A DNA stretch of 55,595 nucleotides, counting the filler, from Jimgerdemannia flammicorona (lineage: Eukaryota): NCBI GenBank assembly GCA_003990765.1. It is 2 parts of 2 records of this genome, joined end to end, with 100 filler letters (N's around TTAATTAATTAA, not from the genome) between each part and the next. Parts side by side here need not be neighbours in the genome. Positions count along the whole stretch, not along the records: positions 27,855 to 55,595 come from RBNJ01000609.1; 1 more part is not named here. The stretch is one strand, 5' to 3'. The notes under the pieces were generated by a model that made no database searches, had not been told where the DNA came from, and was given only the letters and a program-made list of their open reading frames with translations. Made by a program: the position numbers and the translations under genes. Every line of letters starts with the position of its first letter. Within the stretch, counting starts at the first letter, position 1. Below are positions 5,713-44,764 of the stretch, piece after piece.

Positions 5713-5869
5713 TTTTTTTTTTTTTTTATAGTTACTTGGACTCTATCTTTATTACCAATCTATGAATAAGTATACATTAATGCCACCCTCTACCCAATCT
5801 CCATAGGGGAGTCCCTCCCCACCTCCTTACAAATAAAAATCACCCTCTCACCAATGACTTCAACTCTCC

Positions 5870-12749: not shown

Positions 12750-15700
12750 TTCAAGGAATCATATTCCTGAACTAGGTCGGTAGCATTCTGGAGATTGGTC
12801 TTGGGTTCCTAGGTTGCATTGTAGATCAGATAACCTTTCCATTTGACAAGGTACTCAGGGTGGCTCTTGTTGCCATGTTTGTTGAGGATTTGTTCAACTT
12901 TGTATTCTTCTTGGTCATTAATAATGATAGGTGCAGGTGGTTCAGTGGTCCGGTTTGGGAATAGCTCATCATCATTCTCATTATATTGCTTGAGATATTG
13001 AACATTAAAGACTGGGTGAATCTTAATGGTGTCTGGTAGTGCCAATTTGTAAGAGGTTGGAGAAACTTGTGCAATGACTTCAAATGGTCCAATGAACTTG
13101 CTGTTCAGCTTTGTAGATGGTCTATACTTGAGGTTGTCAACTCGGTATCCTCTAATGTCTAGTAGAACCTTTTCTCCCATATCAAAGATTTCTTCTTGGT
13201 GGTGTTGGTTAACATACTGTGACTGTTGTTCTTGGGCTCATGATAAATTCTCAATTGCGATCTGGCTTAGATTACACATTTAGAGTAAGAATTCTTCGAC
13301 AGCTTTGACTGTGGAGGGTTCTTCAGTAGTTTGGATGAGTGTCAAAGGGGTGTTTGGGTTTTGTCCAGTGTTGGCGAAGAATGGGGTCATTCTAAGAGAG
13401 GCTTGTTTACTATTGTTATATGTAAACTCAACTGCGGTGAGGTGTTCATGCCAGTCATCTTGTCTGTAGGAAATATAGTTTCTTAGCATTTGTTCAAGAG
13501 TTCGGTTCATTCTTTCCATTTGGCCATCAGTTTCTGGGTGAAAGGCTGTGGATAGTGCAAGTTTTGTTCCAAGGTGTGCATGGAGGGCTTTCCAAAAGTG
13601 GCTGGTGAATTTCGGGTCTCAGTTACTAACAATGATCTTGGGAAGACCATGATAGCAGAAGATATTATCAAACAAGAGTGTGGCTATGTCTGGTGCTGTT
13701 GCAGTAGTGGTAGTAGACACGAAGTAGGCTTATTTGCTGAGATAGTCCATAAAGACAATAATTGCATCTTTCCCGTTCTTGGTTTGAGGTAGTTGTACAA
13801 TGAAGTCTATAGAGATTTGTTCCCAATTTGTAGATGGTACTGGGATAGAGTGTAGTAAGCTGAGTTTTGCTAGTGTTGAGGACTTGTTTCATTGGCAGGC
13901 ATCACAGGAAGTGATGTAGGTTTTGAGCTGATCTACCATGCAGGGCCAATAGAAGTTTCAGGAGATAACTTCATAATATTTATCAAATCCTAAATGTCCA
14001 GCTGTAGGGGCATCATGACATTCAAATAGAATAGTCCTTTGGAGGTCTCGTTGTTTGGGATATACAGTCTGTCTTTGTAGTAGATAGTATTGTCCTTGAG
14101 TTGGTATTGATTGTACTGGGTATGTTTATCAGTATCATCACTGTTCAGGATATCACGGAGTGCTTGAGCTTCCTTATTATCAGTACATGCTGTGATAATT
14201 TGTTCCATGATAGAGTTTGTAACCAAGGTGAGAGTTTGGATAACCTCTTCGATTAGTGGTCTTGAGATTGCATCGGCAACAATATTTTCCTTGTCAGGGC
14301 AGTACTGGATTTTGTAGTCAAAGTTAGTGAGGACTTTCATCCATCTGGCTTGCTTTCGGGAAAGGGTAGCCTGAGTCTTGATGTTGACTAAAGACTTGTG
14401 GTCAGTCAATATAGTAAAGTGTGCTCCTTCTAGGTAGGGTTGCCATTTGATCAGAGTGTCTACTATGGCTAGCATCTCCTTCTCATGAGTTGCATAGTTG
14501 ATTTCGGCATCATTGAACTTGTAGGAGTGATAGGCTACAGGGTGTCCTTCTTGCATGAGTACTGCTCCAAGAGCTAGGTCAGAGGCATCAGTAGTGACTT
14601 CATATAGTAGGGGAGGATTTGCTGCTTGAAGTACTGGGGTAGTTATCAGGGCATCTTTCAGAGCTTGAAAGGTGGTATCTTGTTTGGGTCCCCAGGTTAT
14701 AAGATTGTTGAAGTCTTTTTCTTGTTTTATGGTCCAGGGTTGTTCTTGTTTCTTACTATGCTTGGTCATTTGAGTGAGGGCAGTAGCGATTTTAGCAAAG
14801 TTGACAACAAATCACTTGTAATAATTTGCTAATCTCAGGAATGACTGGAGGTCTTTCAGCTTCTTGGGTCTGGGCCAATCCTTGATTGCAGAGATTTTGC
14901 TGGGTTTCACTTTGATTCCATTTGGAGTGACAATATGTCCAAGGAATTGAATTTCTTTCAGGAGAAATTTGCACTTACTGAGTTTTGCAAAGAGTTGGTT
15001 TTCTCAGAGTTTCAGTAGTACTAGTTCAAGGTGTTCCTCCAGGGTTTTGCTGAAGACTAGGATGTCATCAATGTAGACAACAACAAATTTGTCTAGGTAT
15101 GGATGCAGAATGGTGTTCATCAGTATCTGGAAGGTTGCTGGAGCATTAGTTAAGCCAAAGGGCATAACCAGGAACTCAAAGTGTCCATAGTGAGTTCAGA
15201 AGGCTGTCTTGTAGATATCTTCTTCTTTCATGGCAATTTGCCAGTAGCCATTTCGCAGATCAAAGGAGCTCATGAATTGTGGGTTGGTAAGTCTATCAAA
15301 TATTTCATCAATCCTCAGTAGTGGGCAACAGTTCTTGATGGTCTGTTCATTGAGATCACAGTAGTCAATGTACATTTGCAGGTCTCCTCCTTTTTTAACA
15401 ACAAAGAGGACAGATGTGCCATAAGGTAATACACTGGGTCTGATGAATCCTTATTCTAGGAGTTCATCAATTTCTTTCTTGAGTGCATCAATTTCTCTCA
15501 GAGATATGTGGTAGATTAACTTGAAGGCTGGTTTGGCATCTAGAATAGTCTTGATAGTATGGTCTACTACTCGTTTGGGAGGTAGGCCTTTCGGGAGCTT
15601 CTTTGGGAATATGTCTCGAAATTTCTGGAGTAGTGGTCTGATATGGCTGTCAACTTTGGAAAAGTCTTCTTCAGAGTTCTCAGGTTCTCCTTTAGATGAG

Positions 15701-22003: not shown

Positions 22004-25000
22004 ATTGTTGGCTTTGAGTAGAACCATATCACCAATATTGTATATGACATCTCACCACTTCTTATCTGCATACTTAGCTTAATGTTGCTGAGTCTTTTGC
22101 AGGTTCATAGTAGTGATCTTGAGAAGGGAATCCATTTTGTCAATAAGGTTCTGGGCTGTGGGGACTTGTGTGTGACTGGATTACTGGAATGAGACTAGGC
22201 TTACAGAGGTCTTGGGGTTTTGACTATGAAGTAACTAAAATGGGGAAAGGCCAGTTGATGATTGAGTGGCATTATTGTAAGCAAACTCAGTATAGGTCAG
22301 ATAGTGGTTCCAATCATCTTGTTCATAAGACACATAGTTTCTGAGCATTTGTTCAAGTGTTCTGTTCATTTGCTCAGTCTGTCCATTAGTTTGAGAGTAG
22401 AAGGCAGTGGACATAGCAATTTGGGTTCCAAGGGTCTTGAAGAGTACTTGCCAGAAGTGGCTTGTGAACTTGGGGTTACAGTTGCTAATAATTACTCAGA
22501 GAAGTCCATAATGGTAGAAGATAGTCTTGAAGAAGATTCTTGTAATTTCTGGGGCAGTAGCATTAGTTGTAGTTGGCTCAGCAATTGTAATCTTGGTGAG
22601 ACAGTCCACAAATACAACAATAGCATTATAGCCTGTTTTGGTTCATGGGAGTTGTACAATGAAGTCCATCATGACTTGTTCAAACTTCTTGGTTGGAATT
22701 GGTAAGGGTTGTAGAAGACTAGCAGGTGCTTAGTTACTTGACTTGTTTCTTTGACAAAGATCACAGCTTTGGATATACTCCTTGATTTCCTTGAGCATAT
22801 TTGGCTAGTAGTAGTCTTATTGGATATTCTTGATGGTCTTCTTGGTTTCAAGGTGGTCAGCTAGTGGGGAGTTATGATGTTCATGAAGAATCTTATACTA
22901 TAGTTCTGGGTTGGTAGGAATATATACTTTGTCTTGATAGTATACAAAGTTGTCCTTGATGGTGTACTTTTCCTTGAACTCCTTGGTATTCCTTTGTAGA
23001 GCCAGAGAGACTTATTTGTATGTCTTCTTGATCTGATTGAGGAATTCAGGTACCATGGTGACTTATAAAATTATAGCAAGGTCAGGTCTTCTTGAAAGTA
23101 CATCTGGTATAACCAGAGTTTTGCCAGGCTTATAGATGATGTTTGGGGTGAAGGTCTGAAGTAGTTGACTTCACTTGGCTTGTTGGTGAGAAAGGGTTGG
23201 TTGAGTGTTGATGTACTGAAGAGATCTGTGATCGGTGACCACATCAAACTCAACTCCTTCTAGGTAATATTACCAGGTCTTGAGGATATACATGATTGCC
23301 AGGAGTTCCTTTTTATGAGTAGCCAGCTTTTGTTCTGCTGGGGACAATTTTCTTGACTCAAAGACAATAGATTGGTGTCCTTGACCATTATCTTGAGAAA
23401 TGACTGCACCAATAACAAAGTTAGATACATCTGTAATAACCATAAACTTCAAGTTTGGGTCCATGTTTCTAAGAACAGATATATGGGTCAGGTGGTTCTT
23501 GAGTTCTTGAAAAGCTTATTAATAGAAAGCATCCCAGATATAGGAGACATAGAGGTCAGAGTTGAGTTCCTTTTGCAGGAGGTTTGTTAAAGATTCTGCA
23601 ATACCTGAGAAGTTCTTGACAAATTGATAGTAGTATTCAGTCAGACCAAGGAAGGACCTGAGTTCAGTGAGGTTTGCTGGTACAGGCCACTGTTCAATGG
23701 CTTGTATTTTCCTTGAGTCTACTTGAATTCCTTTAGCTGATATAATGTGTCCAAGGTATTCAACTTGATTCTTGAAAAATTCACATTTCTTGAGCTTTGT
23801 ATAGAGCTTGTTCTTGCAGAGGATCTTGAGGACTTGTTCAATATACTTGAGATATTCTTCTTCAGTACTACTGAAGATCATGATGTCATCAATATATACA
23901 AGTACAAAGATATAGAGCTGATTCTTGAAGACAGTTTGCATGAGATCTTGAAAGATTGCTAGTGCATTGGTGAGACCAAAGGCCATAACTAGGAATTCAT
24001 AGAGTCTAAAGAGTGTCATGAAGGTAGTCTTGGGTATTTCTTCTGGCTTGATTCGAATTTGGTGATACCTAGAGGTGAGATCAATCTTAGTGAAGTACTT
24101 TGCATTTTTGAGAGCATTAAAGATTTGATCTATGAGTGATAGTAGATAATGGTTCTTGACTGTGATCTTGTTGAGTGCTTGGTAATCTATACATATTCGC
24201 AGAGTATCATCCTTTTTCTTGACAAATAGGACTGGGGAGCCAAAGGGTGACTTGCTTGGTTGAATGGCTTCTCACTCAATAAGTTCATTGAGTTCCTTCT
24301 TGACTACTTCAATTTTGAGTAGAGATATATAGTACATTTTCTTCTTAGGTATAGCCACTAGTACTCCCAAATGAGTCAAATCAATTTGAATCAAATTGAA
24401 TTGAAGGTTAAACAAGTCAAATTGAATTGGGGATTTTTCAATTCAAATTAATTCAAATTGAATCAAAAGTCAAATTGAATTGAGGGTCTGATTCAAACCC
24501 TAAATTTCAAAATGCAATAACTCAGTGTAAACTCATCCAAATCTAATGTACTTTAACTTGTTAGGATCACATTAATATAGTGAATCTAACAAGCTAAAAT
24601 ATGTTAAATTTGGATGAGTTTTTGTTGAGTTATTATATTTTGAAAATTAAGGTTCAAATCAAACTTCGAATCAAATTGGATCTTTGATTCAATTTGAATC
24701 AAATCAAATTGGACCCTTGATTCAATTCATTGGGAGCACTAATAGCCACATCAGATACTAACTTGATTTTGTGGTCATGGTCTCTTGAAGGTAGTAGACT
24801 AGGTAGTTTGTCTGGGAAGACATTCTTATACTTGTTCAGTAGTAACTTGATGCTTTCACTAATTGATAGCTTCTTGTCTTCTTTCTTTGGTCAGATCAGT
24901 GCCACAAAGGTACAAGTAGCTTTCTTGAGGGCCTTCTTAAACTGAATTGCCAAAAGGGTAGTAATTGGGATTCTTGTCTGAGTCTTGTCTGGCTTGATGG

Positions 25001-27754: not shown

Positions 27755-27854
27755 NNNNNNNNNNNNNNNNNNNNNNNNNNNNNNNNNNNNNNNNNNNNTT
27801 AATTAATTAANNNNNNNNNNNNNNNNNNNNNNNNNNNNNNNNNNNNNNNNNNNN
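27755..27854. other. Assembly gap with artificial six-frame-stop linker TTAATTAATTAA (27799-27810)
   Basis: 44 N + linker + 44 N. Confidence 0.97.
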
Positions 27855-29030
27855 TTTTTTGTTTTACGGACTCTATGTCCCACAGATTTTTATTGGAAGA
27901 GAACCTAGACTATATAGGCCAAAACCCTCCCCCACCACCCATCAAGCACTGCCCCCCCATTAATCTAGGCTAGCTATTGTCCAGCAGCTTGACCATGCCA
28001 GGCACAGTAGGGCAAAGTAGCCCACACCTCATTCTGCATACCATACTCTCCCTACCACCAGGAGAAACCCAGCCATATGCCAATGACTGAAAGTGCATGC
28101 CCGAGAACCCAACATATGTACAAGGCCACACCCGAGCCAAATAGAATAGCCCCTGCCACCTCAAAGAGAATGATAAGCAAAGAAAAAACCCTCATCAAAG
28201 CACAATATGGTGGGTAGGGCCTAGTTCTCCCAGTTGAGATGAGTAGAGGACTTATACATGAGGCAGGAGGAGACTCCCAATACCCCACTACTCAAGCCTG
28301 TGGTCCTTGATCATGTTGCCATATCAGCTCCTGGTTCTAGTTGAGTGTAGCCAAGATATCTGAAATGGGTAGCCTTGGGCCCCCCGACCCCCCCTGATGA
28401 CTGGGGCCCAACTCCATGAATTGCCAAAAGAAGCTGAGAGTGACACCTACCACCTAACCATACTGCACCAATCAAAAGGCCCCACCAAAGCAGCACCCAC
28501 CCCAGCCCTGATGACTGCCCCCAGTCTGGCACCCTACTGGTTCACCATAATCACCCTTCCTCCTATCTGTGACAGCCATCTCCTCTCCCATCCCAACATC
28601 ACCTGAAAAACAGTCACCTATGCCAGAACCACACTTGCCGGGAAGCTCGCCAAAGCCAAAGGGCCCCACTATAGGCACCGAGGACCTGCAGATAACCTAC
28701 ACTGAGCACTTGATGCCCAAGGTCGGCTAACTCCCTATGTAGCCCAAGACACACCAAGACAACTCCTTGTTGGTGATGGCAAAAGGAAGAAGGTGCCATA
28801 CCAAAATGGGTACACCCCAGACACAGCTGAAGGCATCAGAATCCACGAAAAAGTGGAGGAAGCACTGATCCGACACTGATAAAGGGGCAACTCATCACCA
28901 TTGCCCTCCTCCCACCATGTCCCTACAGGCACAGCAAACCAACCCGAGGTAGAGGGGGTAATATTAGGGGAAAGGGGACTCGGAAGATTGCCTATCAAAC
29001 CTTGTGACTGGTAAGGTAGTGGAGAAAGGG
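27855..29030 (-). mobile_element. Probable 5'-truncated LINE of a second family
   Basis: T-run then GGACTCTAT...TTTATT, like the 3' end of LINE copies 1 and 2; G/Trp-rich minus strand; no clear RT motif seen. Confidence 0.45.
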
Positions 29031-29997
29031 GTCAGTGAAAAGTCAGCTTTCATCACCCTAGATAGAATCTACATCTACCTACAAATGCCATTTGGAATGT
29101 ATAATGCACCAGCAAGTTTCCAGCAAATGATGAACAAAATCTTCCACTATGATATGGGAAGATGGATGATGGTCTATGTTGATGATGTAATCATCTACAG
29201 CCAGACACCAGAAGAATACCTGCAGCACATCTGGCAGATAATGGAAAGACTGAGAAAGTATGGCCTATACATCAAGCCCAAAAAATGCAAATTTGCAGAA
29301 ATCGAGATCTCCTATCTTGGCCACATTATCAACTGAGATAGAACACACACAGACCCCCTCAAGATACAAGCAGTGGCAGCATACCCAAGACCCACTACTG
29401 TTACAGAAGCCCAAGCCTTCATGGGACTTGACTTCTATTATTACAGATTTATTAGAGGATTTTCTAATATTATGGGACCAATCTATGAACTTAACAAGAA
29501 GGATACCAAGTTCCAGTGGACTGGCAGACAACAAAAAGCATTTGATGAACTCAAGGTCAGACTGACCCAGGCATCCATCCTCAGAAGACCTGACTGGACT
29601 CAAGAATTCATCCTACAGACTGATGCAAGTGCACAAGGACTAAGAGTAGTCCTAGCTCAAAAGAAAGATAAAGTGGAGTATATCATTACATATCTCAGCC
29701 ACAGAACCTGAGGAGCTGAAAAAGAATACAAATCCTACAAGTTGGAATGCCTCGCAGTCATCTGGGCCATAGAAAAGTTCCACTACTACTTGGCTGGAAG
29801 ACACTTCACTATCCAAACGGACCACTCAGCTCTTATCTGGCTACTGACAACTGGACAACTCAAAGGAATCTATGCCAGATAGATAATGAAGTTGCAAGCT
29901 TATGATGTAACTATTGTACACTGCTCTGGAAGAACCAATGCCAATATAGATGCCCTCTCATGGACACTCCAAACTACCTCCAACCAATAAATCAATT

Positions 29998-31191
29998 ATG
30001 AATAAGGAGCTCTACTATGGAATTATCACATACCTGAGACAGCGAAAGATACCCCAACATCTAGAAGAATGGACACAAATGATTATCAACAGAACATGGA
30101 AACAATTCGAAACTGATGAAGAAATACTGAAGAAAGGAAAACTACTAGTCATACCAGAACACAAGAAGGAGCAAGCGATGAAATCAGTATATAAACTTGG
30201 CCATCTAGGAGGAACAAATATATATGACAAGGTAAGAAGAACAATATGATGGCCAGGAATGGAGGAAGATATCAGACAATTTGTCAAGATCTGTGATGAA
30301 TGCCAGAAACAGAAACAAGACCAATGAAATCAAGTCCCAGGATCAGTATACATAGAACCAGTACCATTCGCCCACATTGCAATAGATGTAATTGGCTCTC
30401 TACCCTTAACTTTGACTGACAACCAATACATCATCATCATCATAGACCTTTTTACAAAATGGATAGAAGCAGGACTCCTTATGGAAGCCAATGCACAGTC
30501 AATCGCTGATCTCTTCCACAAAGAAATCATCTGCTGGTTCAAGACCCCAACACAAGTAACTACAGATAGAGGAACAGAATTTGTGAACCAGTTCTTTGAA
30601 GTTCTCTACAAGAAGTACAAGATCCAGTATATTCGGACCACAGCACATCACTCTCAAGGAAATAGACAAGTAGAAAGGACCAACAAAACCCTCAAGAATA
30701 TTATTGCCAAGATCTGTAATAACTACGAGAACTGGGATCACTATCTGCCAATAGCATTATCTGCTCTCCAGAATATCTGATCATAAAGTACCCACTTTAC
30801 TCCTCAAGAAATGCTGTTTGGAGAAGAATGTTCTCAGGGAACCCTATCATCCAATGGAGATGCTGTATAGAAATATGTGGACATGGAAATATGGAGACTA
30901 CACCAAATCAGGAAGAAGGCTGAGGATTATATAACCAAGGTACAGATACTATAATGGAGGAATGCAGAAAAGACCCACAAACCCTTGGAGATTATCAAGA
31001 TAGGAGATAAAGTCCTAGTGTATCAGAATATGGTAGAAGCTTCATGGTCATGAAAACTGGAGCCCAAGTGGGAAGGACCTTACCTTGTGCAAGATATAAA
31101 AGAGACCACCTTTTGGCTACAAAAACCCTTAGGCACAATAATCTCCACCACTATTCACTAAAACTGACTCAAGAAATATCATGGCCAGTAA
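29998..31191 (+). pseudogene. int: Element D integrase as its own ORF (MNKELYYG...LKKYHGQ*)
   Basis: ATG 29998 lies in the +1 frame, upstream of the RNase H stop at 30003-30005; HHCC, DDE and GPY/F motifs. Confidence 0.85.
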
Positions 31192-31657
31192 CAAAAGTAC
31201 TGTAATGGCACTTAAGATCACTAGTGCTGCCCAAAGAGCCATTGAGAGACAATAGTGCACCACCGAGCCTCTGACCATAGAGGAGTCTTATGACAGTATT
31301 CAAAGTATCATGTAGACTCATCTCTCTTAGATCTCACACTTCAAGGCCTATCAGCATTGAAATGAATTCCAAGAGTACTTCAAACTTGGCCAAGTACTCA
31401 ACCAAGACCCAGAAATGACCAAAGAAAATTGAATCGCAGAATGCCAGCTCTCCTATTTCCAGATTACCATTATTAAGAGAATCCATAAGCTATTCTGAGA
31501 GAATGAACCAGCACTAGCCCACCTGCGAGAAGTGACTCCCTCAGACTTTGACTGAGTCAGGCAATACTATTGGGAAACAGTAATGCAATAAATCATACAA
31601 TACAAGACCATACAGACCATTGAAGCCTGGGAGTTTGAATTGATGCTTCAAGGATAA
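31181..31657 (+). pseudogene. Element D ORF3 (~158 aa), homologue of the B and C accessory ORFs
   Basis: MASNKST...EYFKLGQVL...IIKRIHKLF.ENEPALAHLREVTPSDF; single frame with revertible stops; ATG overlaps the end of the integrase ORF. Confidence 0.7.
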
Positions 31658-31679
31658 GATTATCTATTCAGGAGAAAGT

Positions 31680-32139
31680 TGTGATGGTATAGCCAGATTC
31701 AGAAGAAGGAAATAGGGAACAGACACTTAATCACACCCAGTCCCAAAGTAGTATAGCCACATAGTTAGCAGTCCCTGATTTTGCCATTTGCTAAATATTT
31801 CGCAAAGTACAAGATCAAGCTTCTTGATATAGTATAACATTTCACAACTGGCAAAATATTTCACAAAGTGTTAAATGACTCATAACCTAGCCACATAACT
31901 CATCTCATAGCTAGCAAACTTATATAAATAACCCAGTATCTTCGAGTGAATAAACCTCAGATCGAAATAGTTCAAAGCAAAGAGATAGCAAAGGAACTAG
32001 TAAGCCTGCAGGTAGATATACTTCAAACTCACCCACCCTCCTCTACAACTTCAAGAGACTCTGTGAGAGTCAGAATAGTCAAGTTTTTAAGATACAGAAA
32101 TCTGATGTACTTTCAAGAGTAAGCATCTGCTACATTACA
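31680..32139 (+). repeat. 3' LTR of element D
   Basis: TGTGATGG...TTACA after the PPT; reverse-complement homologue at 43808-44265. Confidence 0.88.
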
Positions 32140-32605
32140 ATAACTAATTTGAAATATAACTACTTTGATTATTTGTTTGCAAAACAAATGACCTGTATTA
32201 TACTTAGGACAAATGCTTTAAATTTGTAATCAGAATAAATACTTTAGATATATCTTTCTAAATTATGATTAATACTCAAAGACTCTAAGTATAACTATGA
32301 AATCAATAATCTCTATAGTATAATACTTAGCTGAGACTATTTCTGATCTTATATAAATGACTTAAGATATTCTTACAAAAGTACAATATTACTAGTCTAA
32401 GTATACTAATTAGAAGTAAAGAGAAGTCTCCTATAATATTAGAGACTAGATCATGCTTAAGACAGACTATCTATACCCAGAGATTCTAATATAGTAATTA
32501 TTAAAGAAGCTCTAAGTTAGAAGAATTATACCCTACTAAATTCTGAAAAATTCAGTAAAGTCAACTACAAACTGAAGCTTCTCTATAATATCTATATATA
32601 TATAC
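32140..32605 (+). pseudogene. Very decayed Ty3/Gypsy integrase C-terminal remnant
   Basis: AT-rich; reads EKFSKVNYKLKL near 32545-32580, like the post-GPY/F region. Confidence 0.4.
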
Positions 32606-34138
32606 TATCACATAGTAGTTACTGAGTCCTTCAAATATGCCAGATTCTCTTCAAGGTGTATCTCTTAGACTAACTCAAGTTTGTTATAAGCAAGTTCTTA
32701 TTGGAGTGCCTTCTCAAGGTCTTATAGTCCTCAAACTTCTTATCTTTAACTGTCTTGTTATCTCTTAGATTGCTTGCAAGGAAGTGTGTATAAGTAAACT
32801 TGACTAACTTTATTTCAGAGAAAATAAGAGGAGTATTTATACAAAATATAATTCAATGATTGCTAAGATATAAAGCTAAATATAAATTACAATAACTAAA
32901 ACTACTAAGTTCCAGAGTCGGCACTGATGGTTGTACAGGTTCAGAATACTGGTACATATAATTCAGTATAACAAAGAACTTAGAGCAGAAAGTTCAGGAT
33001 CATGGGGGCTTTATCATCATTATCATTACTGAAGGAGATGAGATTTACAAATTCATTGTCACACAATTCGCATGCTTTGCATATGTCAATGTCACATGGG
33101 ATGATGTCATCGCTGATGACATCATCATGTTTAGCAGAATAAGATCTAGAGCTCTCCAGTCTATGAGGTTCTCTTCCAAAAAATAAAGAACAAATGTGAG
33201 ATCTTGGGGAGGTCTAATCTGGATGCTTGGGCCTTGGAATACTGAGATCAATCCTTGCAGAAATTGGTCTGGGTTGTCCTGAAGGATGAGATACCAGAAG
33301 TCTTCTACTTCATCACTGTTGAGGGTAATAGTGGACTGAGCTTCTGTAGCTACCCTGGCTTCTAGTGCATTGATATGGTGGGATGACAGGTCTCTGAAAT
33401 CTGAGACTCTAACATACTTCAAGTTGGGGATCAACTATGGTGCATACCTGAAGATCTGATGGATCTTCTTAGCTGTTCTTGCCTCATATATATCCATGGG
33501 AGTGGTATCTTGTAGCTCTTGAGGGCTGGCCTGTGGAAACTCCTGGCAGAGGAGGTTTCCTATTTTGTACTCCTGCCACATTTAGAGGCATTTAGTAGCA
33601 ATGGTGATCCTTATTTCTATTTCATAGTGGTAGAGGATAAAGTGATAGGGATCTGCAGTATCCAGGCTAACACTAGGAGTCCTTCTTGAGCAGATCCTCA
33701 TGGCTCTTCTGATGTCTTATAATATCCTTTCTTTGACTGAGATACCCTAGTGGTTCCTTGACCTTGAGGTTTGGCAGGCAGCAGGCATTCTGTTTGTGGT
33801 AAGTCTTTGAGCTATTTTGGGATTGGTGGGTCTTGTTGGTTGCTACTACTGTAGTTCCTTGATCCTTCTTTTATATTCTTCAGAATGCTTGTACTGTGGT
33901 CACAATGACTCACAGTTGGTCATCATTGCTCATCTCATATGCCATATGATCTTCTTGTACTCCAATCTGGTGGCTTGTAAGGAAAGGCTGTCTCCTGTGC
34001 TGATGTCATCATTCTGGGGTCACCATTACATCTTCCAGGATCTTCCTGAGCATCCTTATTCATTGGTCCAGTCTTAAAAAATTTGCTGATCCCATAACCT
34101 CTGACAAGGGGTTGAAAAGTGGTGTTTATAGGCTGACA
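32606..34138 (-). repeat. 3' LTR of element C (1533 bp)
   Basis: Direct repeat of 39711-41201; followed by TCTTCCCTTT (PPT on the minus strand). Confidence 0.9.
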
Positions 34139-34160
34139 TCTTCCCTTTGTATTTTGGCAT
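32980..34160 (-). pseudogene. Element C accessory ORF (~396 aa) starting before the PPT and reading into the 3' LTR
   Basis: One frame from MPKYKGKMSAY to ...ILNFLL*, with only revertible TAA/TAG/TGA stops and one 10-bp deletion relative to the 5' LTR copy. Confidence 0.75.
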
Positions 34161-34376
34161 GATGGTGAAGAGTCACTCCCTTTATATAGAGCAAGGGCCT
34201 GATTCTGATCTTGACCAATCAGTTGATGGTTCGAACTTCTCTGACTTTGAAAGTCTCATGGATGAGTAGTTGTCAGTGCCATATTCCTTAGAGAATGGTC
34301 CAGACAGATAGCCTGCTGGTCATGGGACATGCTGTTATGATTTATGGACTAGAACCTCATGGACAGTCATCACATT

Positions 34377-35582
34377 TTACTTCTCTTGTATAGGTTCATA
34401 GTACTTCTTGAGTCTGTTCCTATGTACTATGGTAGGCAGTATGGTCCCTGAGATTTTTCTAAGCCAGAAGGTGGTTCCTTTGATATCTTGCACATAGAAG
34501 GGTCCTTCCCATTTGGGCTTCAGTTTTCATGACCATGAGACTTCTACCATATTTTGATACAGTAGAACCTTTTCTCCAATTTGGATGGGTTCTAGGGCCT
34601 TGTGATTCTTTTCCACATTCTTCCTTGTCAGCATTTGTGACTTGGTGATGTAATATTCAGCCTCCTTCCTGATTTGGTATAGTCTCCAGATTTCTGCATC
34701 AACTCATCTCCAAGTTAGGTCTAGATTTGTAGCTGAGGTTCCATCAGAATCTTCTTCTCTGAAGAGCAGCTCTCTTAGGGTAAAGTGTGTGCTCTGTGAC
34801 CATATGTCTCATAGGACAGAGAGGGTGGTTGGGAGATAGTTATCCCAATTCTCATATGTCTCTGAGATCTTTGCTAAGATGTTCTTGAGAGTCTTGTTGG
34901 TTTTCTCTGTCTGTCTATTTCCTTGAGGGTGGTATGCAGTGGTCTTGATGTGCTGGATCTTATATTTCTGATATATTATCTTGTGGAATCTATTGACAAA
35001 TTCCATTCTATAGTCTTTTGTAATTTGCTTAGGTGTCTTGTAGTGGTAGATGATTTCTTGGTGCAAGAAGTCAGCTATAGAGAGGGCATTGGCTTCTTGT
35101 AATACTTCTGCCTCTATCCATTTGGTGAAGAGGTCTACAATAACTATAATATAGCAGTTTCCTGATAGTGTTACTAGTAGTGGTCCAATGATATCTATTG
35201 CGATGTGGTGGAAGGGGATAAACTCAATTCTTGATGACCTGGATGCCTGGTCTTGCTGATCTTGTTTCTGTTTTTGGTACTTATTACACCCTTTGACAAA
35301 TTGGCACATATCTTCTTCCATCTTAGGCCACCACATGGTTCTTTTTGCCTTATCATATGTATTGGTTCCTCCTAAGTGTCCTTGCTTGTGTACTTTCTTT
35401 ATTACTTGATACTTCTTATGTTCAGGTATTACTAGCTTTCCTCCTTTTCTGAGTATAGTGTTGTCTAGTTTAAACTATTTCTAAGTCTGGTTGATGATGG
35501 TTATTGTCCAGGGTTCAAGGTGGTTGGGCATCTTCTGCTGCCCAAGATAGCTGATTAATCCATAGTATAGCTCCTTATTCAT
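34377..35582 (-). pseudogene. int: Element C integrase as its own ORF (MNKELYYG...EPIQEK*)
   Basis: ATG 35582-35580 lies just upstream of the RH stop at 35577-35575, in a different frame; GHLGG, IAIDIIGPL, HPQGN, WEGPF. Confidence 0.87.
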
Positions 35583-38500
35583 ATTGAATAGTCTTGATGG
35601 GGATATTTTGAGGTGTTCTTGAGAGTGTATCAGCATTGGTATTGGTCATTCCTGAGTAGTGCTTGACAGTACAGTCATACTCTTGAAGCCTGTAGATCTA
35701 TCTGACATATATTCCTTTGGGGTTCAGAGTGTGGAATAGCCAGGCAAGAGTGGAGTGGTCTGTTTGAATAGTGAAGTGTTTCTTGGCTAAGTAGTAGTGG
35801 AACTTGTCTACTGCCCAAACTATTGCTATGTAAGCATTCAAGCTTACATAACTCATAGTTCTCTTCTGCACTACAGGTACCTTGGCTTATGTAGGAGATG
35901 ATATATTCATGTTCATCTTTCTTCTGAGCTAGGACTGCTCCACTTGTGTCTGTCTGCAGGATGAATTCTAGGTTCCAGTCTGGTCTTCTGAGGATAGGTG
36001 CTTGGGTTAATCTGGTCTTGAGTTCATTGAAGGTTTCTTGGTGCTCCTTGGTCCATTTGAATTTGGTCTCCTTCTTCAGTAGCTCATAGATAGGTGCTGC
36101 AATGTTGGAGTATTCTTTGATGAATTTTCTGTAGTAGCTGGCCAGTCCAAGGAAGGCATAGACTTCTGTGGTTGTTCTGGGTCTCAGGTAGGCTGCAACA
36201 GCCTCAATCTTCATGGGGTCTGTGTGGATTCTAGTCTGGTTGATGAGGTGTTCTAGATAGGTGATTTCTTAAGCTGCAAACTTGCATTTCTTGGGCTTGA
36301 TGTAGAGGTCATGCTCCTTGAGCTTCTTGAGGGCTAGCTATATGTGATTGATATGTTCCCATGCAGTATTGCTGAAGATAATTATATCATCAACATAGAC
36401 AAAGAGCTATTTTCCAATCTCATTGCTGAAGACTCTATTCATCATTCACTGAAAACTTACTGGGGCATTGCACATTCCAAATGGTATTCACAGGTATATA
36501 TAGGTGGCATCAGGTGTGATGAAGGCTGATTTCTCACTGGCATCTTGAGTGAGACCAATCTGATGAAAGCCTGAGAACAGATCCAAGATAGTGTAGTATT
36601 TGGCTTTACTTCCAAGAGTGGTAAGGATTTCTTGAATATTTGGCAAGGGCTGTCTATCCTTCTTGGTAATGGCATTGAGTTTCCTGTAATCAATGCAGAG
36701 TCTTGGTGTGAATTCTCCAGACTTGCTTCCTTTTTTTGGAGTAAGGACAATAGGTGAGGCCCAGGGGCTGATAGCTTGCTTGATGATTCCAGCTTCTTCC
36801 ATTTCCTTGAGTTCTGCTTACAGCAACTCTCTGTAGGCAGGTGGTATGGGTCTGGTTTTCTGATAGATGGGCTTGGTATCACTAGTGTCAACTTCGTGGT
36901 AGTACTTGGGTTCTTGATTGTGGATATCCCTGAAGTCTGTAGCAAGTACTCCTTTGTTCTGATACAGGATCTTGAGAAGTTATTCCTCCAGGGGAAAGTT
37001 TTCTCCAATAGTATATGTGTGCTTATTCTGGTCCTTGTCTTTCTTATGTTCAAGTTTGGTAATCTTGGTGGTAGCATAGGCTCCTCTTCCAGTAGATCCA
37101 AAGTCTTGTTCTTCTCTCTTGATCTTGATGAGTTTGATAGCTTCAATGATCTGGGGTTTCTTGATTTCGTGGATCAGTATCTGGCCAATCCTGTCATACT
37201 TCTTGACTTCAAAGGGGGTGGTGTGGTTGTGATTTCTGACTATGAGGAAGATCTTGCCAGTGTAATCAGAGTCAATTACTCCTTCTTTAACTGAGATTTC
37301 GCTTTTGGCCAGACTGCTCCTGGTCTTGATGATTCCAGCATGGTCCTCTGATAGCTTGACTCCAATTCTAGTGCCAAGTAGGGTGGTGGTCTATGGTTTG
37401 AGGGTAGTATCTTAAATTCTGGCAAGGTCTTTTCCTATGGCTCCTTTAGTCTTGTATTCTGGGATCTTGGCTTTGGGGTGAAACTTCTTGACCTTGAGGG
37501 TGATGTCTGATTCTTGTTCCTCCTCATCATTGCTGTCAGCTTGGAGCTCTGGGGGCTGGTCATCTTCTTTGGCTTTTCTTTTTGCTTTGGTAGCTTCTTG
37601 CTCATATTTCTGTTAGCAGATTTTTCTGACTTCACTGATACAGAACCAGCAGTCATTCAGGTGTTCAGAGCAGTACATCCTAGTACTATGGGGGCATCTT
37701 CCTTGAGGGGCATAGCCATCAATGATCTTGTTGTACCACTGCTCATCTGTGAGCTTAGGTATCTTGTTCTTATTCTTGTTCACCAAGTGCATGAAGACCT
37801 CTGTCTTCTTTATCTCCTTCCTCCATGTCTGGTAGAACTCCTTTGTGGACATTGATAGAGACTCATATCTTTCTTCCTCTATAGTTGATCTGCATCTTCT
37901 GGGCATTGAGGTCAATGATGGCCTTGGCCTTATGAAGCCATTGGTTGCCAATGAGGATGTTATAGTTGGTGGCACTTGTACCAATCATATCTACTAGGAT
38001 GGTAGCTCCTCTTATCTTGATGGGAACTTCTCAGATTTTGCCAAAGGGGGTAGCTCATGTACTATCTGCTGTAACATAGACCATTTTGGTGGACTCTTCA
38101 ATGTCCCAACCTAGGTGGTCAATTGCCTTCTTGCTCATGAGACATCTTCCAGCACTAGTATCAATGATGGCATCAAAGATACAGTCTTCGATTTGAAATG
38201 GGGTATAAGCTGATGTCTTGTACTGGTCTTCAGATTCTTCACCTGAGTTCTTGGATTCTTCTTGTACATTGTGAGCTTCTACAATCTTGTACTCTTAATT
38301 CTTGGTAGTAGTTGCAAGTTCTACTCTCAACTGCTGTCTGAAGGCAGGGACTTCGGCTAGCTGTCCAAAGGTGGCATTGACCTTCTGTTCCTTGAGGTCC
38401 TTGTAGATATCATACTGGTGGATCTTGGTCTTGTACAGCTTCTGTTCCTTCTTACTTTCACTTTCTCCTGAGACTGGAGTAGTACCTACAATAATTTGGT

Positions 38501-39710: not shown

Positions 39711-41201
39711 TGTCACATAGTGGTTGCTGAGTCCTTCAAATATACCAGATTCTCTTCAAGGTGTATCTCTTAGACTAACTCAAGTTTGTTATATGTAAGC
39801 AAGTTCTTATTGGAGTACCTTCCCAAGGTTTTATAGTCCTCAAACTTCTTATCTTTAACTGTCTTGTTATCTCTTAGATTGCTTGCAAGAAAATGTTTGT
39901 AAGTAAACTTGACTGACTTTATTTCAGAGGAAATAAGAGGAGTATTTATATAAAATATAATTCAATGGTTGCTAAGATATAAAGCTAAATATAAATTCCA
40001 ATAACTAAAACTACTAAGTTTCAGGGTCAGCACTGATGGTTGTTTAGGTTCAGGATGCTGGTATAATTCAGTGTCACATCAGAATACTGGTACTGGAATA
40101 ATTTTGCATCACCTCAGAATACTAGTGCTGGCATTATTCAGTATAATAAAGAACTTAGAGCAGAAAGTTCAGGATCGTGGGGGCTTCATCATCATCATCA
40201 TCACTGAAGGAGATGAGATTTACAAATTCATTATCGCATGATTCACATACTTTGTATATATCAATGTCATGTGAGATGACATCATCACCAATGATATCAT
40301 CACATTTGGTGGGGAAATCGGGAATAAGATCTGGAGCTCTCCAGTCTATGAGGTTCTCTTCCAAAAAATAAGGAATAAATGTGGGGTTTTGGAGAGGTCT
40401 AATCTGGATGCTTGGGCCTTGAAATACTGAGATCAATTCTTGCAGGAATTGGTCTGAGTTGTCTTGAAGAATGGGATGCCAGAAGTCTTCTACTTCATCA
40501 TTATTGAGAGTGATAGTGGACTGAGCTTCTGTGGCTACCCTGGCTTCTAGTGCATTGATATGGTAGGATGACAGGTCTCTGAAATCTGAGACTCTAACAT
40601 ACTCTAAGTTGGGGATCGACCATAGTGCATGCCTGAAGATCTGATGGATCTTCTTAGCTATCCTTGCCTTACATATATCTATGAGAGTGGCATCTTGTAG
40701 CTCTTGAGGGCTGGCCTGTAGGAACTCTCGGCAGAGGAGGTTTCCTATTTCGTACTCCTGCCACATTTGGAGGCATTCGGTAGCAATGGTGATCCTTGTT
40801 TCCATTTTACAATAGTAGAGGATAAAGTGATAGAGATCTGCAGTACTCAGGCTAACATTAGGAGTCCTTTTTGAGTGAGTCCTCATGGCTCTTCTGATGT
40901 CTTAGAACATCCTTTCTTTGACTGAGATACCCTGATGGTTCCTTGACCTTGAGATTTGGTGGGCAGCAGACATTTCATTTGTGGTAAGTCTTTGAGCTAT
41001 TTTGAGATTGGTGGGTCTTATTGGTTGCTGCTACTATGGTTCCTTAATCCTTATTTTATATTCTTCAGAATGCTTGTACTGTGGTCACAATGACTCACAG
41101 TTGGTCATCATTGCTCATCTCATATACCGTATAAACTTCTTGTGCTCTGATCTGGTGGCTTGTAAGGAAAGGCTGTCTCCTGTGCTGATGTCATCATTCT
41201 A
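39711..41201 (-). repeat. 5' LTR of element C (outer ~120 bp missing)
   Basis: Starts TGTCACA; identity to the 3' LTR ends at ~41201. Confidence 0.88.
40155..40886 (-). CDS. Still-open 243-aa part of the element C accessory ORF in the 5' LTR
   Basis: ATG-initiated uninterrupted ORF containing the conserved EYEIGNLL...IAKKIHQIF...IPNL core and an acidic tail. Confidence 0.55.
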   Translation of the reverse strand: MRTHSKRTPNVSLSTADLYHFILYYCKMETRITIATECLQMWQEYEIGNLLCREFLQASPQELQDATLIDICKARIAKKIHQIFRHALWSIPNLEYVRVSDFRDLSSYHINALEARVATEAQSTITLNNDEVEDFWHPILQDNSDQFLQELISVFQGPSIQIRPLQNPTFIPYFLEENLIDWRAPDLIPDFPTKCDDIIGDDVISHDIDIYKVCESCDNEFVNLISFSDDDDDEAPTILNFLL

Positions 41202-43154
41202 GATTACAAGATCTATTATAGTTAAGTAGTCTTTCTTAATTAAGTTGAAAGATTATTTCATCTATAATATAATTTAAAAAAAAGGAGAAAATCTTAGAGA
41301 ATATATAAAAAGTACTATAGAAGTAGATATATCTAAGTATATAGTAATCTATATAGACTATAAAGAGCTATTTTAGTAGAAAGTAGCACTATTTCTAAAA
41401 AATAGTAACTATGGCCAGAAGTTTCTTTTTATGGATAATATAATATATTTTTACTAGCTTAAGCTTCTGAGATAAATAGGCTACTGGGCAGTTCTCTTAA
41501 CTAAATATAGTCCTAATAGTAATATTTGATATATCTATAGTCAATTTGAATGACCTGAGTACAATCAGTATAGAAATCTTAATAAGTAATCTCTTGAGAT
41601 ATTCTATAACTATTATATTGGCAGAGATCTATTCAGCTTTAATATTAACTCCTTTTTATACTAAACTAGTAAGTAGAGTAGTAATTTTAGAGTATCTCTA
41701 GATAAACTAGTAATAATAATTTATAATCTCTAAGAAATATTGAAGGATCTTGAGAGTAGTGGAAATAGAAATATCCTATAGGGCCAATATCTTTCAGAGA
41801 TCTATATTGATATTATTAGTTGAGATAATGTATTTTAGATATTTAATCTAATCTTAGTAAAACTTATACTTACTTATCTTGATATAAAGCTGGGGTTCTT
41901 ATAATAAAGTCAGTATACTTCAAAGATAGATATAATATAATTTGACTATTTCATTATAGATTAGAATATTATTTATATATATTAGAATATATATATTGAA
42001 CAATAGTCTAAAGATATTATTTATGAGATTTTGAAAGATTGTAGAGATATTAGTTAGATTAAAAGATATAACTTAGAATTGGTAATATTTAAACTATATT
42101 CTGAAAGCTGTTTTCTATATCCTTTTTATTAAAGAGAATCTTGTGATATCTATTTTATAGATAAGAATATCTTAGTTTTGAAAATCTAATAGAGTAGCTC
42201 ATCAATTCTTAATAAAGTATATGAGTTCTTAATAGTGATCTTATTAAAAGTCTGATAGTTAATATATATCTATAATAAGCTATTCTTCTTTTTGACAAAT
42301 AGAATTAGTACTTTAAAGAATGATCTACTTGATTTGATATATTCTTAAACCAGTAGTTTGATTAGTCTTCTTTAAGAACTTTGAGCTCAAGTTGGGCTAG
42401 TTGATAGATACTCTTATATGAGAGTTTAGCTTCTAATATAAGATTAATCTTATGTTGAATTTGATACTTGAGTAAAAAACCTATAGATTTCTGAAAAATA
42501 TCTTGAAATTTCTCAAAGAATTCCTGAGCCTCTAATGAGACTAGGCTAGTTAGAGCTTCTACTACTTCTTCTACTATATAGATATAATAGATATTTTTCT
42601 TCTTGTAAGATAGTCTCTTTATTTAGATAGCAGAAATGAGTTCAATCTCTTAGTAGTTAAGTTTATTTTACTGAGATATATCAGAGTAATTCTTTTTTCT
42701 TTATATAGTAGATCAACTTTATTTATCTATTAGTTAATATCTGAGTTATACTTATTCAACTAAGTCTTTTTAAGAATAATATTATATTCTAGAAATCTAT
42801 AATACTGAAGTCAAGCTTCTCTTAGTACTTACTAATTTTAAGTAGTAGGTTTTTGTAGATTCAGATCAATAGCTGAGTCTTGCTATTACTAAAGATTATT
42901 TATTTCTTTTCTATTATTGGTTTACTTTGAGCTATAATTCTTTTAGCTGTCTTTATACTGCTATAGTTTCTTGTGATACTACTGTCTAATAAAATTACTA
43001 TATTTTATTTATTGACTTATTCTTCAAACTTGATATAATGATCCTTCTTCTTGATGATAGTAAGTTTATTATTATTGTTTCAATTAATTTTATTCTCCTT
43101 AAAGTCAGTCTTGCTCTATTCTTTACAAGTGGTATATTCTGATTTAAATTCTAC

Positions 43155-43735
43155 TAGTACTCTAAACAAGCTGATCTGGATCAGATTCAAATCCTATCTG
43201 GATCAACTTGGATGGAATTTAGATCTTATTTGGATTGATTCAAATTAACTATTATTTTAATTTCCAAATTAGACAATTAAATATTTATATCAATAACTAA
43301 ATGAATAATTATTCAATTTTGATTATTTTGATATCATTTAAAAGCCCTTAATAAGGCCTTTCTAATGATATTAAGAATATTAAAATTGAATTATTCATTA
43401 TTGAGTTATCAAGAAAAATATCTGACTTGCTAATTTTGGAAATTATTCAACTTGCCAATTTTGGAAATTTCTTCAAAAGAATGTTTTCCTTAATAGCTCA
43501 GCAATATGTTATCTGATTTTAACATTCTTGATATCATTAGAAAGGCCATATTAAGGACTTTCAAATAACACTAAGATTATTAAAACTAGATAATTATTCA
43601 TTGAGTTATTAATATAAATATTTAATTATCTAATTTAGAAATCAAAACAATGATTGATTTGAATCAATCTAGATGAGATTCAATCCAAATCCAATCTAAA
43701 TCCATCTAGATTAAATTGACTTGTTTGAAATACTA
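43155..43735. mobile_element. hAT-type MITE M2
   Basis: TAGTACTC...TACTA; degenerate 8-bp TSD AATTCTAC/GATTTCAC differing by transitions only. Confidence 0.85.
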
Positions 43736-43807
43736 GATTTCACTATTATCTTCTTAGTTTGGTATCTTACAATTTGGATTTTGAAAACTTTAGAGAGATA
43801 TATATGT

Positions 43808-44265
43808 TGTAACATAGCGGACACTTACTCTTGAAAGTACGTCGGATTTCTGTATCTTGAAAACTTGACTGTTCTGACTCTTACAGAGTCTCTTGAAGTG
43901 GCAGGGGAGAGTGGGTGAGTTCGAAGTGTATCTGCCCGCAGGCTTACTAGTTCCTTTGCTATCTCTTTGCTTTGAACTATTTCGATCTGAGGTTTATTCA
44001 CTTGAAGATACTGGGTTATTTATACAAGTTTGCTGGCTATAAGAGGGTGGCTAAGTAATAAATGAGTCATTTGGACTTTGTCGAAACATTTGGACAATGT
44101 CTAAATGCTATACTAAATCAGAGTATTCAATTTGGATAATGTCTAAGAATTTAGACAATGTCGAAATCGAGGACTGCTAACTATAATACTATACTACTTT
44201 GGGAATGGGTGCGATCAAGTGTCTATTCCCTATTTCCTTCTTCCAAATCTGGCTGTACCATCACA
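43808..44265 (-). mobile_element. Solo LTR related to element D
   Basis: TGT...ACA; reverse complement of 31680-32139; flanked by ATGT/ATGT. Confidence 0.88.
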
Positions 44266-44764
44266 ATGTATAATATTTACTAATATATTCTATATAGTAT
44301 ATTCAAATAGAATAAGAGTATTATCTATATAGTGCATAACTATCTACAATTTTCTGATACTAGTTTTTATTATTTTTCTTTACTATATTGACTTTTTACT
44401 TATTAGATATTCAGTCAGTAGAGCCAAATCCTTTCTTATCTTGGTCAGACTTATCTAGTTTAGAGACTTCTTTAATAGTGAGGTCTTTTTAGATCTTTTT
44501 GATAATAGTTTGAATAATCCTTTGACTAATCTTTATATTAAAGGACATATTATCAAAGTTTTATAAAATAACTTAGATCTTATAAAGTCTCAGTCAATAA
44601 CTCCTTCTTCTAGATCAATATTGAATTCTTTGACAAGTTTACTTTAATCAGCTAGGTGATGTAGAGGCTTGTATTCCAATATCAGTTTATACTATTATAT
44701 TTGAATCTAGTGAGATAGTGAGATTCTAGCTACTGTAAAGATCATAATCTGCATTAGTTGGATC

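Follow-up and report, generated by a model that had tools for sequence, protein, structure and literature searches.

The window analysed here, 55,595 nucleotides of the Jimgerdemannia flammicorona assembly GCA_003990765.1 in two joined parts, carries two dead copies of a Ty3/Gypsy-type LTR retrotransposon lineage, termed C and D (Table 1). They lie on opposite strands and are 70% identical across about 2.1 kb. Both are heavily decayed: the integrase remnant contains 9 internal stops in D and 5, up to residue 397, in C, and the RT/RNase H parts of both carry further stops, accompanied in C by a frameshift. The integrase frame of C closes at TAA 34379-34377, where an intact relative (P0003, 83% identical) continues. 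C is flanked by direct repeats, in agreement with the LTRs of a Ty3/Gypsy element, and a CCHC motif is visible in its gag frame; LTRs were also sought for D and were not found.

Table 1. Features of copies C and D and of remnant A (positions refer to the window).
Feature	Position	Strand	Basis and remarks
D decayed RT/RNase H	29033..30005	+	translation; RNase H profile matches 29613-29975; 70% alignment to C
D stop/start junction tATGAATAAg	29997..30006	+	integrase ATG 29998-30000, RNase H stop 30003-30005
D integrase ORF remnant, H2C2 zinc domain and rve core	29998..31191	+	one frame; Pfam, profile matches
D ORF3 remnant	31181..31678	+	65% identical to L006 ORF3
C decayed RNase H	35575..35944	-	closes at TAA 35577-35575; translation, profile search
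C stop/start junction tATGAATAAg	35574..35583	-	ATG 35582-35580, stop 35577-35575
C integrase ORF remnant	34377..35582	-	one frame; translation, Pfam, profile matches
C 3' LTR	32608..34015	-	direct repeat with 39713-41200, 88-93% identity
C 5' LTR	39713..41200	-	direct repeat with 32608-34015, 88-93% identity
Remnant A, different Ty3/Gypsy, RNase H end and integrase N-terminus in one open frame	13990..14811	-	

In translation, the RNase H frame of D ends in ...SNQ*INYE*, where the first stop (TAA at 29988-29990) occurs in D only and the second (30003-30005) is shared with C, whose own frame on the minus strand ends in ...IKTIQYE*. The integrase starts with MNKELYYG in both copies, each time from an ATG in the +1 frame relative to RNase H. 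The 16-nt sequence TATGAATAAGGAGCT is identical between C and D, and the 60 nt upstream of TATGAATAAG agree at 38 of 60 positions with no indel. These coordinates and frames bear out the preliminary description, which had reported that the RNase H stop and the integrase ATG overlap in both copies and that the linkers have diverged while the offset is the same. A similar overlap which it had seen at the integrase/ORF3 junction of D is present as described: cATGGCCAGTAA spans 31180-31191, and ORF3 begins with an ATG 8 nt upstream of the integrase stop TAA at 31189-31191.

Of nine sequencing runs listed, each with a small share (at most 0.15), four supplied contigs (80% likeness), which represent many diverged copies of the C/D region. 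Among those listed, four of the five junction-bridging contigs are gap-free, the fifth (X3 record 24) has 2 gaps within 35391-35625, and no contig row shows an indel at the junction of C or D. Remnant A, with an RNase H match at 14598-14260 and an integrase match from 14071 (profile search), has the usual fused form and provides an internal contrast to C and D.

Intact and near-intact relatives exhibit the complete layout. In L003, which is intact, an ORF1 of 1577 aa comprises zf-CCHC, aspartyl protease, dUTPase, RVT_1 and RT_RNaseH domains (Pfam), the integrase is encoded in a separate frame of 429 aa whose ATG lies in an ATGA overlap, and a third ORF of 233 aa is present. L006 is near-intact, interrupted by a single stop in the gag region of ORF1 and another in the integrase, and its junction ATGAATAAGGAGCT is the same as in C and D. 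The ORF1 of L007 reaches 1651 aa. The order protease, RT, RNase H, integrase with an upstream CCHC Gag was found by Pfam in the ORF1 and integrase ORFs of L003 and L006, to which C and D align; Pfam detected no chromodomain in the integrase ORFs. Integrase dN/dS is 0.099 between D and C and 0.133 between D and L006, and purifying selection evidently acts across the split. The initial view that the split does not stem from post-insertion decay is thus upheld by an intact and a near-intact element that have it and by the dN/dS of 0.10-0.13. Since such relatives carry the split and no close relative is fused, we regard it as an inherited trait of the family.

Aligning the RNase H/integrase junction over the relatives revealed the split in all 14 distinct loci that are readable on both sides, C and D included (L003 and L004 counted once). 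With the A of the ATG numbered +1, the RNase H stop begins at a position from -5 to +9 nt in 14/14. It is found at +2 (ATGA) in L001, L003, L014 and L022, at -2 (TGATG/TAATG) in L009, L011 and L013, at +6 in C, D, L006 and L010, and at +8, +9 and -5 in L007, L005 and L012, respectively, so that the motifs include ATGA, TAATG/TGATG, ATGAATAA and others. This recurrence, in lineages whose integrases are only 40-50% identical, exceeds chance. The frame relation, in contrast, varies: the integrase is read in the +1 frame relative to RNase H in 5 loci and in the -1 frame in 9, and both offsets occur within one strongly supported clade of three rows (L010, L005, L007). The identical offset of C and D had been taken for a conserved feature, a view that fails at the family level, where the closeness of stop and start is what is conserved. 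In the sister lineages L025-L028, 42-139 nt separate the stop from the ATG.

The start Met of the integrase is invariant in 31/31 aligned ORFs. The position is included in 64 of 112 database matches, 58 of which begin exactly at the conserved Met and 6 of which carry 7-31 extra residues; the starts of the metagenome proteins among them were called by prokaryotic gene finders, while the 14 junctions were read directly from the DNA. An exhaustive HMMER search gave 14 matches, among its best 150, that extend over the integrase N-terminus, each beginning no later than protein residue 18, and the long fused proteins align only from query residue 42-67, with at most 37% identity. A protein search found no fused close relative, the best fused proteins being at most 31% identical, and a search from the RT side detected an rve domain in none of 18 dUTPase-bearing ORF1 relatives. 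Fused RT-RH-IN proteins thus occur only among distant relatives, with identities of at most 37%. The integrase tree unites all 15 overlap rows in one clade of 22 rows (SH-aLRT 96), whose core of 20 rows has zero fused members; L059, a fused row on a long branch, stands at the base of this clade, where the tree leaves the branching order open. P0379, a fused protein of 2096 aa that is 50% identical in RT-RH, was considered as a counter-example and rejected: both its RNase H/integrase junction and its integrase match the usual fused form and lack the MNxELYY segment, which places it in a different lineage.

What has to be explained is that the ORF layout is conserved, that the Met never varies, that stop and start keep close together, that the offset changes and that no close relative is fused. 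From these observations we infer both the translational mechanism and its effect on protein ratios. Integrase is probably made by coupled termination-reinitiation and would then be less abundant than the other Pol products. This reading is favoured because the ATG is invariant and always adjoins the stop while the offset switches between +1 and -1. Two hallmarks of such coupling were found: the downstream AUG overlaps the upstream stop or is only a few nucleotides away from it (14/14 distinct loci), and the downstream product has a conserved initiator Met. The elements are polycistronic on this reading, with Gag, protease, dUTPase, RT and RNase H in one frame as ORF1 and the integrase as ORF2, its AUG only a few nucleotides from the stop of ORF1. 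Part of the ribosomes that end ORF1 would not leave the full-length RNA but resume translation from the adjoining AUG. A free integrase protein would result, and as only part of the ribosomes restart, it would be less abundant than Gag-PR-RT-RH. In this lineage the restart would replace the frameshift or readthrough at gag/pol as the control of protein ratio.

Reinitiation after a long ORF usually needs RNA structure near the junction. MFE z-scores, which apply to pseudoknot-free folds, revealed no shared stable structure in the 100 nt upstream (mean z 0.04, n=13); negative values were obtained only for L009 (-1.2), L011 (-1.7) and L013 (-3.2). The spacers of 42-139 nt in L025-L028 fit classical tight coupling less well, and the fused L059 at the base of the integrase clade was counted against reinitiation.

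Three mechanisms had been put forward at the outset, namely termination-reinitiation, +1 frameshifting and a spliced or subgenomic RNA. The comparison favours the first and speaks against the second, as the offset varies. The strongest rival, although we consider it unlikely, is that integrase is translated from an mRNA of its own, produced by splicing as a subgenomic RNA or transcribed from an internal promoter, and that the overlap reflects no more than compact packing. The env of errantiviruses and retroviruses is made from spliced subgenomic RNA. A separate mRNA would equally account for the fixed AUG and the freely varying frame, for the spacers tolerated by the sister lineages, and for the variable overlap of 1-68 nt between ORF3 and the integrase, as is often seen with overlapping genes on separate mRNAs. 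However, a spacing of -5 to +9 nt in 14/14 loci with integrases 40-50% identical is tighter than compaction requires. Furthermore, inspection by eye of six sequences of the C/D subclade revealed no CAG/TAG acceptor in the last 45 nt ahead of the ATG, and the DNA scan gave no consistent GT..AG intron.

Internal ribosome entry, by which an unstructured, G-poor tract before the AUG would recruit ribosomes independently of ORF1 translation, appears improbable. The 45 nt before the ATG do contain only 4-13% G in D, C, L006, L010, L005 and L007, against a background of 18-24%, and 7-13% G in the spacer lineages; in L006 (z +2.0) and L005 (z +2.8), the tract folds less stably than shuffled controls do. 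In the ATGA/TAATG lineages (L001, L003, L009, L011, L013), however, the G content is ordinary, and the adjacency of stop and AUG would be left unexplained.

Programmed ribosomal frameshifting, yielding an RT-RH-IN fusion, is very unlikely. An overlap window does exist, as 18-138 nt ahead of the ATG are open in the integrase frame, and a heptamer of the form X_XXY_YYZ occurs in 3 of 8 scanned -1 loci (L007 CCCAAAC; L014 CCCAAAG and CCCTTTT; L013 CCCTTTC). The other 5 lack one, however, and neither the offsets nor the heptamer scan showed the fixed frame relation and conserved shift site expected of this mechanism. The change between +1 (5 loci) and -1 (9 loci), even inside a tight clade, argues against +1 frameshifting. 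Moreover, the C/D site GAA UAA G would offer no re-pairing for a +1 slip, and frameshifting needs no invariant Met adjoining the stop.

That the split is a defect shared by dead copies of one broken ancestor is hardly credible, even though C and D are heavily decayed and have two stop positions in common, one in RNase H and one at integrase codon 352: intact relatives are split too with an integrase dN/dS of about 0.1, C has its own LTR pair and therefore transposed after diverging from D, and every internal integrase stop in C and D corresponds to a Trp, Arg or Gln codon of L006 one transition away, so that the positions in common are compatible with C-to-T or G-to-A decay having run in parallel.

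An Ogre-like intron that restores one frame is disfavoured, as the DNA scan gave candidates with a GTRNGY donor in only 4 of 13 loci, each deleting at least 15 conserved integrase codons. An alternative genetic code was dismissed, since each of the three stop codons is represented and the reading frame changes from one ORF to the other.

In retroviruses and LTR retrotransposons, integrase is cut from a Pol polyprotein, and the ratio of Gag to Pol is set by frameshifting or readthrough at gag/pol. The present lineage resembles canonical Ty3/Gypsy elements such as Ty3, Tf1 and gypsy in its LTRs, the CCHC Gag and the order PR-RT-RH-IN, but gag through RNase H form one frame with a break before integrase. 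In Ty3, Tf1 and gypsy, by contrast, cleavage of a Pol or Gag-Pol polyprotein releases the integrase, and the ratio is controlled at gag/pol, in Ty3 by a +1 frameshift (PMC5911963, PMC5009743).

The TAATG, TGATG and ATGA motifs found here are of the same kind as the reinitiation sites of fungal RNA viruses, that of HvV190S being AUGA. As in our junctions, CHV1 (UAAUG) and HvV190S have a long upstream ORF whose stop codon overlaps the next start codon, and reinitiation in these viruses is described in PMC2699510 and PMC10275272. The fungal viruses separate capsid or p40 from the replicase, whereas the LTR element would separate integrase from the rest of Pol; HvV190S also requires an upstream pseudoknot, whereas MFE z-scores revealed no common structure here. 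Two further systems are described in PMC10275272. The retrotransposon SART1 likewise expresses a downstream ORF from full-length RNA via UAAUG coupling, but it is a non-LTR element divided between ORF1 and a whole ORF2 and requires a downstream RNA structure, while the present split falls inside what is usually Pol. Cauliflower mosaic virus, a reverse-transcribing relative of Ty3/Gypsy, translates consecutive ORFs of its 35S RNA by reinitiation, but it needs the transactivator TAV, has no integrase and is episomal.

Two retrotransposon groups with divided coding regions differ from our case. In DIRS elements the recombinase has an overlapping ORF of its own, but this is a tyrosine recombinase and the termini are different. 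In Ogre elements, a stop-containing stretch interrupts pol, and splicing between the protease and RT regions restores the frame, unlike the present junctions, where the DNA scan found no consistent intron. Our literature searches, which covered parts of the sources concerned, returned no published account of integrase as a separate cistron coupled by stop and start codons.

If reinitiation holds true, a large, selectively maintained lineage shows that the dosage of integrase is separable from that of RT, and LTR elements join the few eukaryotic systems in which reinitiation follows a very long ORF (1300-1650 codons in this lineage). The natural junction variants (ATGA, TAATG, ATGAATAA, spacers) would then allow the requirements of reinitiation to be dissected. 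From a practical point of view, split-integrase elements will be scored as broken by annotation pipelines built around a fused Pol.

ORF3 is common to many family members and starts shortly before the integrase stop; its ORF in D belongs to a conserved protein family. No Pfam family corresponds to it. The AlphaFold2 model is all helical and of high confidence (pLDDT 89.6); Foldseek returned no match in the PDB at E <=0.001, and the best hit of a wide VIA search (Z 4.9) is within the noise for helical proteins. Tentatively, and with considerable doubt, one may picture a tricistronic lineage of the Metaviridae type, probably residing in soil fungi, in which integrase would have left the Pol polyprotein, integrase and ORF3 would be made by two successive restarts and the ratio control would have moved from gag/pol to RNase H/integrase. 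That the helical ORF3 protein might aid reinitiation in the manner of TAV is pure speculation. The starts of ORF3 overlap the integrase by 1-68 nt, and an ATG as far as 41-68 nt upstream of the integrase stop, as found in some members, was counted against reinitiation.

The RNase H frame and the integrase frame of pol are separate in both Ty3/Gypsy copies under study, D (plus strand) and C (minus strand). Coordinates and translations agree with the preliminary description, in which the RNase H stop overlaps the ATG of an integrase opening with MNKELYYG in the +1 frame; the overlap of integrase and a third ORF (ORF3) in D was likewise described accurately. C and D are identical at 38 of the 60 nt preceding TATGAATAAG, with no indels, and show no difference in the 16-nt stretch TATGAATAAGGAGCT, their identity being 70% across 2.1 kb. 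A point absent from that description is that both copies are dead: the integrase frame carries nine internal stops in D and five in C, the upstream parts contain further stops, and that of C is also frameshifted. Every one of these integrase stops is a Trp, Arg or Gln codon in the related metagenome locus L006, one transition away. This is a C-to-T / G-to-A decay pattern in both integrase remnants, and it accounts for the two stop positions common to C and D. Differences between window 28900-36600 and related public contigs are nearly all transitions.

Among the relatives, locus L003 is fully intact, with an ORF1 of 1577 aa (zf-CCHC, aspartyl protease, dUTPase, RVT_1 and RT_RNaseH domains), an integrase frame of 429 aa and an ORF3 of 233 aa. 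L006, whose junction is exactly that of the window, carries a stop in the gag portion of ORF1 and another in the integrase; ORF1 of L007 measures 1651 aa. A single frame spans gag to RNase H in these relatives, with no gag/pol frameshift, and thus the sole translation break precedes the integrase. In C, a stretch matching dUTPase was spotted by eye in the translation (window about 37390-37100, minus strand).

In 80 metagenome loci encoding relatives, RNase H and integrase profiles served to locate the two sides of the junction. Where both sides are present, separate ORFs that overlap or abut were found in 13 loci as well as in C and D, and separate ORFs with a spacer of 42-139 nt in four. A single fused ORF occurs in 20 loci, with integrase scores that are low throughout (182-287 versus 340-648 bits), and five loci hold broken versions of fused forms; in the remaining 38 the contig has no RNase H upstream. 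Relative to the RNase H frame, the integrase is offset by +1 in five loci and by -1 in nine. A further group (L029, L032, L039 and L071, related to L037, L051, L053, L063 and L066) has decayed integrase ORFs that open at a similar N-terminal Met, no RNase H within 500-1500 nt upstream, and a clade of its own in the integrase tree; possibly these elements consist of an integrase only or are DNA-transposon-like (Ginger-type).

Coordinates and geometry of junctions and associated features (C, D, winC, winD: window copies; L numbers: metagenome loci; stop position: first base of the stop counted from the A of the ATG as +1)
Feature	Position or loci	Strand	Detail
D RNase H frame end		+	...DALSWTLQTTSNQ*INYE* (translation)
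D-only TAA, RNase H frame	29988-29990	+	
D second TAA, RNase H frame	30003-30005	+	
D integrase ATG	29998-30000	+	opens MNKELYYG; one base ahead in frame
C RNase H frame end, TAA	35577-35575	-	...IKTIQYE*
C integrase ATG	35582-35580	-	
D IN/ORF3 junction	31180-31191	+	cATGGCCAGTAA
C LTR pair	32608-34015 and 39713-41200		88-93% identical
Stop at +2	L001, L003 (= L004), L014, L022		ATGA
Stop at -2	L009, L011, L013		TGATG / TAATG
Stop at +6	winC, winD, L006, L010		ATGAATAA / ATGAATAG
Stop at +8	L007		
Stop at +9	L005		
Stop at -5	L012		
Spacers	L026:117-256; L028:287-415; L027:2001-2045; L025 about 669-790		
dUTPase domain between protease and RT	L003 ORF1 residues 931-1058; L006 ORF1 residues 648-775		Pfam
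ORF3	L003:5960-6649; L006:5795-6253; window 31181-31678		and 12 further loci
LINE-like duplication	1214-10235		
Inverted LINE-like copy	50082-55539		
Repeat cluster	43154-49710		

Protein databases give the same picture. With the C integrase as query (stops written as X), 112 matches of 218-695 aa were obtained. Dozens of them are about 400-435 aa long, share 36-83% identity with the query over 99-100% of its length and open with M-N/D-x-E-L-Y-Y. According to a profile alignment, the integrase N-terminus is present in 64 of the 112; 58 of these start exactly at that Met and six carry an extra 7-31 residues. Among longer proteins, the fused RT-RH-IN forms found with this query do not exceed 31% identity. 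The intact relative P0003, compared exhaustively by HMMER with 1.84 billion cluster representatives, gave a result in agreement: in the best 150 matches, all 14 proteins spanning the N-terminal segment do so from residue 18 or earlier, and long fused proteins align only from query residue 42-67 on, at no more than 37% identity. The RT-RNase H part of L006 retrieved dUTPase-bearing ORF1 relatives of 785-1937 aa, and none of the 18 among the matches listed has an rve domain. One fused protein, P0379, is 50% identical in RT-RH; its junction is an ordinary fused one and its integrase is of a different type.

In an integrase tree of 59 rows (quick IQ-TREE method), all 15 overlap rows fall inside one 22-row clade (SH-aLRT 96), whose 20-row core (support 88) contains no fused member. 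Spacer forms group in clades adjoining the 22-row one, and most fused forms are on the far side of the deepest split. L059, a fused form on a very long branch, counts against a clean picture, its placement at the clade base being unresolved in this quick tree. Integrase dN/dS is 0.099 between D and C and 0.133 between D and L006, and synonymous sites are close to saturation; the split was therefore already present in the lineages while they diverged as working elements. As the preliminary description had argued, the split does not stem from post-insertion decay; it is inherited, given split intact relatives, no close fused forms found and dN/dS of about 0.1. The observation is confirmed: split pol is a genuine trait that selection has maintained in a large lineage, and C and D are fossils of that lineage.

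As to how the integrase is translated, the junctions point to termination-reinitiation, the best supported of the mechanisms proposed earlier and, in our prediction, a fairly probable one. An invariant AUG a few nucleotides from the stop of the preceding ORF, in one or other of the two remaining frames and with motifs such as ATGA and TAATG, is the signature of coupled termination-reinitiation. The process is documented in two fungal viruses, CHV1 and HvV190S, and in the non-LTR element SART1 (PMC2699510, PMC10275272). In the sister lineages L025-L028, the spacer between RNase H stop and integrase ATG is G-poor and pyrimidine-rich, and in all four the first AUG past the stop, as read from the sequences, is that of the integrase. 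This fits post-termination scanning but is not significant because G content is low. No common RNA structure was found near the junction (mean upstream z-score 0.04, n = 13), negative upstream folding z-scores occurring in L009, L011 and L013. The lack of common structure, the G-poor tract and the spacer lineages count against reinitiation or limit it. Internal entry could equally take place at the G-poor tract, which has 4-13% G before the AUG in the window's subclade, and a subgenomic or spliced RNA may yield the integrase. Programmed frameshifting, also suggested earlier, finds a heptamer in three of the eight -1 loci scanned, but it is missing from the other five, and frameshifting explains neither the invariant Met nor an offset that switches among relatives, even within the trio L010, L005 and L007 (support 100). 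An intron across the junction has only sporadic candidates, in 4 of 13 loci, and these would remove conserved integrase codons.

Many members carry ORF3 3' of the integrase, its ATG lying 1-68 nt ahead of the integrase stop and often within codons of the conserved KKYH end; in L002 the two overlap as ATGA, with ORF3 in the other frame. The ORF3 proteins of 14 loci and D align as a single family, for which AlphaFold2 gives a confident, all-helical model (pLDDT 89.6), and neither a Pfam family nor a convincing fold match was found. ORF3 is a new protein family, all-helical in this model.

We found no literature on an LTR retrotransposon integrase with reinitiation, though Repbase may list such elements uncommented. 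In the consulted parts of surveys of fungal LTR elements (PMC2864245, PMC3248453), the elements have one or two ORFs, with dUTPase in some families. An integrase ORF of its own is not mentioned there, and supplementary tables may list such elements uncommented. Bdelloid rotifer elements combine PR-dUTPase-RT and ORF3 with an integrase within pol, as far as the consulted part of PMC5408684 goes, and in a large review of frameshifting (PMC5009743) the word 'integrase' does not occur within the initial 300,000 characters. The Atlas cluster closest to P0003 is an integrase-only family in which Mucoromycota is the most frequent known phylum, which is a lead only. Related DNA occurs in runs from soil metagenomes and one coded organism.

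The window holds at least four Ty3/Gypsy pol remnants. Remnants A (13990-14811) and B (22238-23440), both on the minus strand, belong to other families. A has the usual fused form, with one frame for RNase H and the integrase start. The 5' LTR of C contains a long open frame of 248 aa (40155-40901, minus strand) with a homologous stretch in the 3' LTR (33300-33700, minus strand), and such a coding-looking frame within an LTR is unusual. Two runs of 44 N (27755-27798 and 27811-27854) in the D gag region are assembly gaps or masking. Elsewhere, a LINE-like unit of 4.5 kb is tandemly duplicated at 84% identity, with a third, inverted copy near the window's end, and direct and inverted repeats of about 500-600 bp each form a cluster.
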